Shown here piece after piece: positions 6,543-7,316 of a stretch of 44,729 nt of DNA. Where the stretch lies: the UHGV virus genome UHGV-0045723; one strand, written 5' to 3'. The DNA is from a virus. The notes beneath the pieces were generated by a model that saw only the letters and a program-made list of their open reading frames with translations, was not told the origin of the DNA and did no database searches. Numbering within the stretch: the stretch's first letter is position 1; every line of letters begins with the position of its first letter. The position numbers were made by a program, and so were the translations under genes.

Positions 6543-7316
6543 ATGGATATTACTGAGTTTCCTTCTGGAGTAATTGAACACCTTGGCTGGTATGTATACC
6601 GATTGATTGATCCGAGGGACGGAAGCACCTTCTATGTAGGGAAAGGCAAAGGTAACCGCGTATTTGCCCATATGCGCGGTGAAGTGGCAGCGACTGATGA
6701 TGACGAGTTACTGAGCAACAAGCTAAAGCAAATTAGAGAAATAAGGTTAGCAGGACTTGAGGTTATCCATGTCATCCATCGACACGGAATGACTGATGAA
6801 AAGACGGCGTACGAAGTCGAAGCAGCACTTATTGATGCCTACCCTGGGTTAACGAATATCATGAATGGTGCTGGCAGCAATGAATTCGGCGCCGCGCATG
6901 TCAAAGAGTTGATAGCAACATATCAACCCGAAACCATAACATTTCATCATAAAGCATTAATGATTTCCGTTAACAGAAGTGCAAAGGATTCAGAGCTTTA
7001 TGATGCGGTTCGATTTAGCTGGCGCATTAATGTCTCTCGCGCCAGCCAAGCAGAAGTCATTCTTGCTACTGTAAGGGGGATCGTTCGAGGGGTTTTCATT
7101 GCTGATAAATGGCTCAAATCAACACGTGAAAATTTCCCTACGATGAAATACTGGGACGAGGATCCGGACTTTGAGGCAACACAAAGTTCTCGCTATGGTT
7201 TTGAAGGTCGAGAAGCCCCACCTGAAATAGCAAATCTTTATCTTGGAAAAAAAATACCAGATGAATTAAGAAAAAAAGGAGCTATGTCCCCGGTCCGTTA
7301 CTCACCTAATTTTTGA
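6543..7316 (+). CDS. GIY-YIG domain protein (putative nuclease) with uncharacterised C-terminal domain
   Basis: [29 protein letters not shown] matches the GIY-YIG pattern; ATG at 6543 preferred over the TTG at 6492 used by the ORF track. Confidence 0.6.

Follow-up and report, generated by a model that had tools for sequence, protein, structure and literature searches.

What is a gene for a GIY-YIG domain protein doing at the edge of a prophage, between a tRNA-Ser remnant and a tail-fiber invertase? The question is raised by UHGV virus genome UHGV-0045723, whose 44,729 nucleotides (hereafter, the window) carry such a gene at positions 6543-7316. A reading made from the letters alone (the sequence-only reading) had taken it for accessory cargo, possibly a single-gene nuclease-based defense or a homing-type endonuclease. 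Judging by its relatives, the gene is very probably PD-T4-3/CMoRE, a single-gene defense against T4-like phages whose DNA contains 5-hydroxymethylcytosine (hmC, or 5hmC) or its glucosylated form (glucosyl-hmC), carried here as prophage cargo. The identity of the protein, the retention of its functionally important residues, its independence from its neighbors and its place in a cargo slot are established in this analysis; from near-identical proteins of known activity we infer the same activity for the window allele. The system itself is already known, having been found in 2022, named, and mechanistically solved in 2026. The functional selection of Vassallo et al., Nat Microbiol 2022 (PMC9519451) turned up a GIY-YIG nuclease system. 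Liu et al., Nat Commun 2026 (PMC12923530), citing that work, trace PD-T4-3 to E. coli ECOR68, in which it was first found, and rename it CMoRE.

Identity of the encoded protein

The open reading frame (ORF) starts with ATG and is intact.

6543-7316, + strand: PD-T4-3/CMoRE coding sequence, 257 aa plus stop, matched by PADLOC, phrog_5356 and PDB 9U75

Its product is identical to RefSeq protein WP_000355484.1, and RefSeq labels this protein either "LEM-3-like GIY-YIG domain-containing protein" or "hypothetical protein." The PADLOC profile for PD-T4-3, PDLC04031, matches it along its whole length (E=2.4e-140; profile positions 1-255 of 256 align with residues 1-256), and so does a characterized member of the family, CMoRE of E. 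coli O157:H7 (PDB 9U75/9U8D; E=3.7e-172), with 253 of 257 residues identical (98.4%, 4 differences). These two matches bear out the suggestion of a single-gene nuclease-based defense. The enzyme from avian pathogenic E. coli (APEC) O1 (PDB 9U7U/9U7Z) is more distant, at E=1.1e-150, with 38 differences from 9U7U (85.2% identity). The protein also matches phrog_5356, a PHROG of unknown function (E=2e-143), and a search of NCBIfam with it returned no family. Copies in E. coli HB-Coli0 and CT01 translate exactly to the window protein, while the RefSeq copy from O157:H7 strain PA20 translates exactly to the 9U75 sequence.

Domains and functional residues

The characterized enzymes have two domains, and both can be laid out on the window protein.

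6543-6887, + strand: N-terminal nuclease domain of the GIY-YIG type, from PF22945, residues invariant in homologs of 33-46% identity, and the motif and mutagenesis of PMC12923530
6696-6707, + strand: acidic run D52-D53-D54-E55 of the autoinhibitory lid loop (ATDDDELL, against AADDDDLL in 9U75 and AVDDDELL in 9U7U)
6915-7313, + strand: C-terminal modification-sensing domain, about aa 125-257 including Y127, from 98.4% identity to 9U75/9U8D

The peptide first recognized as a GIY-YIG motif is residues 15-43 exactly, and the domain is backed by Pfam PF22945 (LEM-3_GIY-YIG), the best Pfam match (E=2.1e-14, residues 28-110); the generic GIY-YIG model PF01541 matches weakly, below cut-off (E=0.067). 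The sequence-only reading was right that a stretch with no recognized motif follows, but this runs to about 140 aa rather than 180, as the nuclease domain, with E93 and N105, reaches to about residue 110-115. By its alignment with 9U75, this C-terminal part of about 140 aa is the modification-sensing domain of the solved structures: over residues 125-257 only Q169 (K in 9U75) and N197 (H) differ, and Y127 is kept.

The extended GIYxY-YIG motif, with all three tyrosines, reads G15-W-Y17-V-Y19 ... F30-Y31-V-G33. The window protein keeps every one of Y17, Y19, Y31, R80, V92, L96 and Y127, along with the acidic run D52-E55. The sequence-only reading had proposed an alignment of the catalytic residues. 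Such an alignment, made from the window protein, APEC O1 CMoRE, and homologs from phages Moabite (46% identity) and OBP (39%) and from the phage-plasmid PhiR41_1 (33%), leaves Y17, Y19, Y31, G33, K34, G35, R39, H43, E93 and N105 invariant. The Arg and Glu are therefore retained: R39 and E93, together with a metal-site Asn, N105, are invariant down to 33% identity. Their spacing is presumably that of the canonical GIY-YIG Arg, Glu and Asn, as in UvrC and I-TevI. Neither UvrC nor I-TevI came up when PDB was searched by sequence with just the N-terminal domain; hence the alignment served to assign the catalytic residues.

The lid loop keeps four consecutive acidic residues as DDDE, the same run as in APEC O1 9U7U. 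Compared with 9U75, the window protein has T51 in place of A, E55 in place of D, Q169 in place of K and N197 in place of H. At two of these four positions, E55 and N197, the other active enzyme, APEC O1 9U7U, has the residue of the window protein. Position 51 is variable among alleles (A, V or T), and residue 169 varies in the alignment described above.

Published mechanism and the proposal for this allele

CMoRE is described as a single-component type IV restriction endonuclease acting on phages with hmC or glucosyl-hmC DNA (PMC12923530). According to that study, plating of T2, T4 and T6 falls by about five orders of magnitude in the presence of the system, and carriers of its O157:H7 form grow normally at a multiplicity of infection (MOI) above 1, which indicates direct immunity; T4 DNA is depleted genome-wide while host DNA read depth is unchanged. 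The purified enzyme requires Mg2+ or Mn2+, binds and cuts DNA with 5hmC or glucosyl-5hmC and does neither with DNA containing C or 5-methylcytosine (5mC), and T4 with unmodified cytosine escapes it. Cut sites are CN11/N9G with 2-nt 3' overhangs, two modified cytosines are required, and cleavage across the T4 genome shows no strict sequence restriction. The enzyme is a tetramer, and the interface mutant V92S/L96S loses both oligomerization and defense. In the structures of the 5hm-dCTP complex, Y127, through its main-chain oxygen, contacts the 5-hydroxyl group of 5hmC, and the authors report no sequence or structural homologs for the sensing domain. A 15-residue loop with four consecutive acidic residues sits over the active site; changing the four to alanine (mutant 4A) relaxes specificity, so that ordinary DNA is cut and the protein is toxic. 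Neither 5hmC DNA nor 5hm-dCTP activates cleavage of ordinary DNA. Most, but not all, members of the family have the acidic loop, and the APEC O1 allele gives weak defense from its native promoter (all PMC12923530). In the native host NILS69, PD-T4-3 is among only two active systems and targets Tevenvirinae (bioRxiv 10.1101/2024.12.20.629700). A Capnocytophaga homolog, 48% identical, is modification-dependent both in vivo and in vitro (PMC12366544).

The steps proposed for the window allele come from a protein that differs from it at 4 of 257 residues. A lysogen would express PD-T4-3 from the gene's own promoter, and the product would assemble as a tetramer, a dimer of dimers. The C-terminal domain would bind 5hmC or glucosyl-5hmC DNA and ignore DNA with ordinary C or 5mC, a dimer reading two modified cytosines about 21 bp apart. 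The N-terminal GIY-YIG domains, with Mg2+ or Mn2+, would then cut between them at CN11/N9G, leaving 2-nt 3' overhangs, and the acidic lid loop would bar ordinary host and prophage DNA from the active site. T2, T4, T6 and related T-even phages would lose their genomes to degradation early in infection and the cell would survive, by direct immunity and not by abortive infection.

Expression is expected to start in the short arm upstream of the gene.

6369-6542, + strand: AT-rich phage arm (31.6% GC) from the attachment (att) core to the start codon, presumed to hold the gene's own promoter

This upstream arm is identical to that of the O157:H7 allele at 162 of 175 positions (about 93%), and the native promoter of the O157:H7 allele drove defense (PMC12923530); it is on this similarity that we infer expression of the window gene. 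A weak promoter candidate, TTGTGA (6482-6487) and TAATAT (6505-6510) separated by a 17-nt spacer, agrees with the consensus at 8 of 12 positions, below the threshold of the scanner. The promoter may tentatively be placed within this arm.

A single gene in several contexts

Among 5426 complete E. coli genomes, 838, or about 15%, have PD-T4-3 (at least 95% DNA identity), and in 808 of the 838 the flanks, a serU junction and the invertase, come along with it. Eight phage-sized "plasmids" carry it, CT01 "plasmid unnamed3" among them. Four contexts were compared: two prophages, the SfV-like one at thrW and a lambdoid one at ssrA; the prophage remnant of O157:H7; and a phage genome in the form of a 43.7-kb circle. 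All that is common to the four is PD-T4-3 and about 200 bp upstream of it, as fits a self-sufficient single-gene system. In PA20 the gene stands in a decayed prophage, in the order insertion sequence (IS), AraC regulator, PD-T4-3, pinE, the same as in the window. In E. coli TO217 (1918-5774 in the numbering of that locus) it terminates a lambdoid prophage located at ssrA and has a Dcm-type methyltransferase and a type II endonuclease as neighbors. CT01 "plasmid unnamed3" (NZ_CP081794.1, circular, 43,671 bp) encodes the identical protein and is homologous to the window from 6345 rightwards; from tail fibers to integrase it reads acyltransferase, PD-T4-3, Dcm-type methyltransferase, type II endonuclease. 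What is typed as a non-mobilizable plasmid is the whole genome of an SfV-like phage, circular and in attP form.

The Dcm-type methyltransferases of CT01 and TO217 are each paired with their own annotated type II endonuclease and belong to a separate system. Since CMoRE ignores 5mC (PMC12923530), it is compatible with Dcm-type restriction-modification (RM), and the two together would cover both unmodified and hypermodified invading DNA. In the window, no methyltransferase adjoins PD-T4-3, and a type II RM system with a GIY-YIG nuclease, of the Eco29kI or Hpy188I type, was rejected as an identity for the gene on that ground.

It is possible, and we put it forward tentatively, that the gene, its arm of about 175 bp and the att core form a portable cassette exchanged among unrelated temperate phages, always at the boundary between tail fibers and att site. 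The other carriers seen are the SfV-like myovirus, in thrW and serU forms, and the lambdoid phage at ssrA.

A megablast search of sequenced phages with 6200-7400 matched the serU piece and not the PD-T4-3 gene; phage homologs came from a protein-level search, and all are at most about 46% identical. Lytic jumbo phages of 250-285 kb, Serratia phage Moabite (3001-3765), Pseudomonas phage OBP (2992-3753) and, as a third carrier, Klebsiella phage N1M2, have full-length homologs (38-46% identity, 97-99% coverage; coordinates in locus numbering). They keep the catalytic residues, have a much less acidic lid loop, and are annotated "homing nuclease" or "endonuclease"; they may serve as weapons against competing phages with hypermodified DNA. 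The Escherichia phage-plasmid PhiR41_1 (108 kb) has a 33%-identical homolog near parA (2956-3723, locus numbering), with insertions in the C-terminal domain.

Alternative explanations

A homing endonuclease of the I-TevI or Seg type, spreading by way of a cognate target site in phages that lack the gene, would also have a GIY-YIG catalytic domain, and there is a marginal match to phrog_314, "homing endonuclease" (E=0.0021), in addition to the "putative homing nuclease" annotations of the full-length homologs in OBP and N1M2. Those labels are unverified, however, and the full-length matches are to the PD-T4-3 defense family. The Pfam search shows no NUMOD, zinc-finger or helix-turn-helix (HTH) DNA-binding module, and no intron, intein or conserved target gene lies around or beside PD-T4-3. 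The gene sits instead in an att-proximal cargo slot with its own upstream region and with neighbors that vary between genomes, and a near-identical protein chooses its cuts by base modification (PMC12923530). Homing is extremely improbable on these grounds, and the second of the two functions in the sequence-only reading is set aside; that reading had held that it would fail if the gene proved to be a housekeeping or homing enzyme, and the protein belongs to a defense family. Similar odds attach to an abortive-infection nuclease that, once triggered, degrades host and phage DNA and kills the infected cell. Many single-gene prophage nucleases do act so, and the enzyme without its acidic loop is toxic and cuts ordinary DNA (PMC12923530). 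But carriers of the O157:H7 system grow at MOI above 1 with host DNA intact while T4 DNA is depleted, cleavage of ordinary DNA is not switched on by 5hmC DNA or 5hm-dCTP (PMC12923530), and the acidic loop is intact (DDDE) in the window protein, leaving scarcely any room for this explanation.

Some points do weigh against an active defense at this locus. The activity of the window protein would be an extrapolation from related proteins; T51 and Q169 occur in neither crystallized protein, and Q169 replaces a lysine of the sensing domain. The catalytic roles given to R39, E93 and N105 are our own assignment, from their invariance in the alignment and the usual GIY-YIG spacing, as the text of PMC12923530 calls the catalytic residues conserved and gives no residue numbers for the Arg and Glu. 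A consensus scan upstream of PD-T4-3 found no sigma-70 promoter on the + strand, and no obvious Shine-Dalgarno sequence precedes the ATG. The allele might accordingly be inactive or shifted in specificity, through T51 or Q169, or poorly expressed from a hybrid locus; both crystallized proteins do have lysine at the position of Q169, the scan showed neither a strong promoter nor a ribosome-binding site, the APEC O1 allele is weak from its native promoter (PMC12923530), and a distant homolog also cuts Mu DNA, in which adenine is modified (PMC12366544). As a rarer option, Q169 may shift the range of modifications recognized. Against this, the ORF is intact, and the identical protein occurs in many genomes and in a circular phage genome; the family alignment shows no conservation at residue 169, every residue of demonstrated importance is retained, and the upstream region is 93% identical to the active one of O157:H7. 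An impaired or altered allele is therefore very unlikely, and an active PD-T4-3/CMoRE remains the preferred reading.

Comparison with known enzymes

The window protein shares with the CMoRE proteins of O157:H7 and APEC O1 its length, two-domain layout, GIYxY-YIG motif, acidic lid loop, tetramer-interface residues and Y127, and with the PA20 locus its genomic neighbors (IS fragment, AraC regulator and pinE); it differs from O157:H7 CMoRE by the four substitutions T51, E55, Q169 and N197. Like PD-T4-3 of ECOR68 and NILS69, it would be a single-gene GIY-YIG system on a mobile element that gives direct immunity against T-even phages; this likeness rests on the descriptions of those systems and on the PADLOC model named after the system. 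PD-T4-3Capno belongs to the same family, and its restriction of T4 depends on DNA modification and on its GIY-YIG active site; its identity to the E. coli enzyme is only 48%, and at high dose it also degrades Mu DNA, which carries carbamoylmethyl-adenine (PMC12366544).

Looking further afield, the nuclease domain shares with the N-terminal domain of UvrC and with LEM-3/Ankle1 (PF22945) the catalytic fold and the Tyr/Tyr/Arg/Glu/Asn set. CMoRE is set apart from UvrC and LEM-3 by a further tyrosine (GIYxY), an acidic insert of 15 residues between helices 2 and 3, another partner domain, and a role in defense, not repair. PvuRts1I/AbaSI, GmrSD and McrBC are type IV enzymes that target hmC or glucosyl-hmC (ghmC). 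CMoRE resembles them in joining a sensing domain to a nuclease, in having no cognate methyltransferase and in its T-even targets, and it resembles PvuRts1I in cutting between two modified cytosines about 21-22 bp apart with 2-nt 3' overhangs. The other type IV enzymes have PD-(D/E)XK, HNH or DUF262-type catalytic folds, in contrast to GIY-YIG in CMoRE, which also lacks a nucleoside triphosphate (NTP)-dependent motor. These enzymes are also discussed in PMC12923530, which names UvrC as the closest structure to the CMoRE nuclease domain.

The prophage and its cargo slot

The gene order of the window is that of the annotated prophage of E. coli HB-Coli0. The window's prophage is a member of the SfV/SfI/SfII/SfIV family, about 97% identical to these phages in its baseplate and tail genes. 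In SfIV, the slot between attP/int and the tail-fiber genes holds gtrA, gtrB, gtrIV and an IS element. The same slot in the window, from the tail fibers outwards, holds the invertase, PD-T4-3, the serU junction, an AraC-family regulator and an IS3-family fragment. PD-T4-3 has 43.9% GC against 54.7% in the structural genes, which fits acquired cargo; this low GC and the place between invertase and att junction agree with the accessory role first proposed for the gene.

7336-7377, no strand: hairpin between PD-T4-3 and the invertase, 13-nt arms with one mismatch, 16-nt loop
7377-7931, - strand: Pin/Gin-type serine DNA invertase, pinE-like (Resolvase E=9.1e-52, HTH_7 E=3.9e-13)
7993-9831, no strand: invertible tail-fiber segment between 20-nt inverted repeats (7993-8012 and 9812-9831, 95% complementary)
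4975-5727, - strand: AraC-family regulator, 35% GC, WP_000246059.1

PD-T4-3 had been read as convergent with a tail-fiber invertase, and so it is: a 61-bp spacer separates it from a serine invertase, annotated pinE in RefSeq at 100% DNA identity, that lies beside an invertible tail-fiber segment. The invertase is a neighbor of the defense gene, not a component of the system. The 1.84-kb segment carries alternative tail-fiber C-termini and assembly genes, with Collar, Caudo_TAP (twice) and Gp53-like_C domains. The hairpin between the two genes (dG -23.5 kcal/mol, z = -3.27; none of 200 shuffles folds as well) is a candidate two-way terminator; a scan for consensus terminators misses it because its loop is too long for the rule of the scan. 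The AraC regulator (the same protein, WP_000246059.1) and the IS3 fragment accompany PD-T4-3 in HB-Coli0 and in O157:H7 PA20, and the regulator is absent from the CT01 and TO217 contexts. Runs of N, standing for bases that are masked or unresolved, at 10314-10332 and 27245-27288 interrupt a baseplate or tail-fiber gene and the terminase region; the first of them is flanked by a G/C run coding for poly-Pro or poly-Gly.

A serU junction inside a thrW-bounded island

The tRNA-Ser remnant to the left of PD-T4-3 was put forward as an att site, and it does contain one.

6303-6368, - strand: 3' fragment of tRNA-Ser (serU), 62-66 nt, a 100% match to the attR tRNA-Ser pseudogene of phage SerU-LTIIb
6023-6302, no strand: about 280 bp of bacterial DNA downstream of serU (serU-yodB intergenic flank), joined to the att core
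4422-4485, - strand: 3' fragment of tRNA-Thr (thrW), the distal direct repeat, whose partner thrW at about 44694-44729 is cut by the right end of the window

Within the serU fragment, the att core is a stretch of about 15 nt, CGGTTTTCGAGACCG, which forms the anticodon stem-loop. When the window is aligned with the CT01 circle, which is in attP form, and with the attR of SerU-LTIIb, the three have only CGGTTTT(C/T)GAGACCG in common; at this core the window tracks bacterial sequence leftwards and phage sequence rightwards, so the fragment is a true attR-type junction. Window positions 6023-6362 are 97.9% identical to the attR end of SerU-LTIIb (424-763, locus numbering), and the stretch 6200-6362 is found in 5423 of 5426 E. 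coli genomes. Within the phage arm, PD-T4-3 comes first among the genes, 174 bp from the core.

The direct repeat of thrW (64 nt in HB-Coli0) recurs in the window as an exact 46-nt match, the motif appears again in the final 36 nt of the window, and the integrase at 43516-44679 abuts thrW at the right end. The fragment at 4422-4485 and the thrW at the right end thus bound the island, the serU junction lies about 1.9 kb inside it, and the serU fragment is rejected as the prophage's own att site. The junction derives from a serU-integrating relative, and recombination between resident prophages presumably placed it inside the thrW island. Mildly new, and as description only, are the fossil serU junction within an island bounded by thrW and the repeated occurrence of the cassette next to att in unrelated temperate phages.

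An ARAGORN scan of the window found no tRNA, since each of the two tRNA pieces present is either a fragment or truncated where the window ends. An Rfam scan gave only sub-threshold hits (Plastid-psbl-rps4, CssrB, sX4, tmRNA 3' end), chance matches to which the hairpin and the tRNA fragment gave rise. A short ORF at 4060-4308, immediately to the left of the thrW fragment, has a translated end resembling, by eye, the C-terminus of a tyrosine integrase, and Pfam finds nothing in it. The order there, int then thrW, is that of the right end of the window; its presence at both places suggests tandem islands at thrW, the element with the defense-associated reverse transcriptase (DRT) described below being the older.

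Significance and other defense genes in the window

As a discovery, the gene carries little weight, since PADLOC and DefenseFinder already detect PD-T4-3. As annotation it is useful: from it the lysogen can be predicted to resist T-even phages whose DNA carries hmC or glucosyl-hmC, and this is relevant to the choice of therapeutic phages, given that about 15% of complete E. coli genomes carry PD-T4-3. The locus also illustrates how temperate phages hold defense cargo next to the attachment site, where Shigella phages keep genes for serotype conversion.

The window holds further defense genes in two places.

50-3259, + strand: RT_UG5-nitrilase (DRT class) ORF, 1069 aa (PADLOC, full length, E=0, 1034 bits)
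30443-31618 and 31621-32835, + strand: two-gene DS1 cassette, on the strand opposite to the surrounding phage late/lysis genes

The 1069-aa ORF has no Pfam hit at E<=0.001, and from its PADLOC match it is predicted to be a DRT with a fused nitrilase-like domain. Some 3.3 kb separate it from PD-T4-3, its place being in the older island to the left of the thrW fragment; HB-Coli0 lacks it at the corresponding position. The two-gene cassette is likewise missing from HB-Coli0. A search with PADLOC 2023 gave no hit in it, while NCBIfam equivalogs identify both genes, DS1_1_antiphage (nucleoid-associated) at 451 bits against a cut-off of 330 and DS1_2_antiphage at 375 bits against a cut-off of 315. 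By these assignments the cassette is a predicted second defense system within the same prophage.

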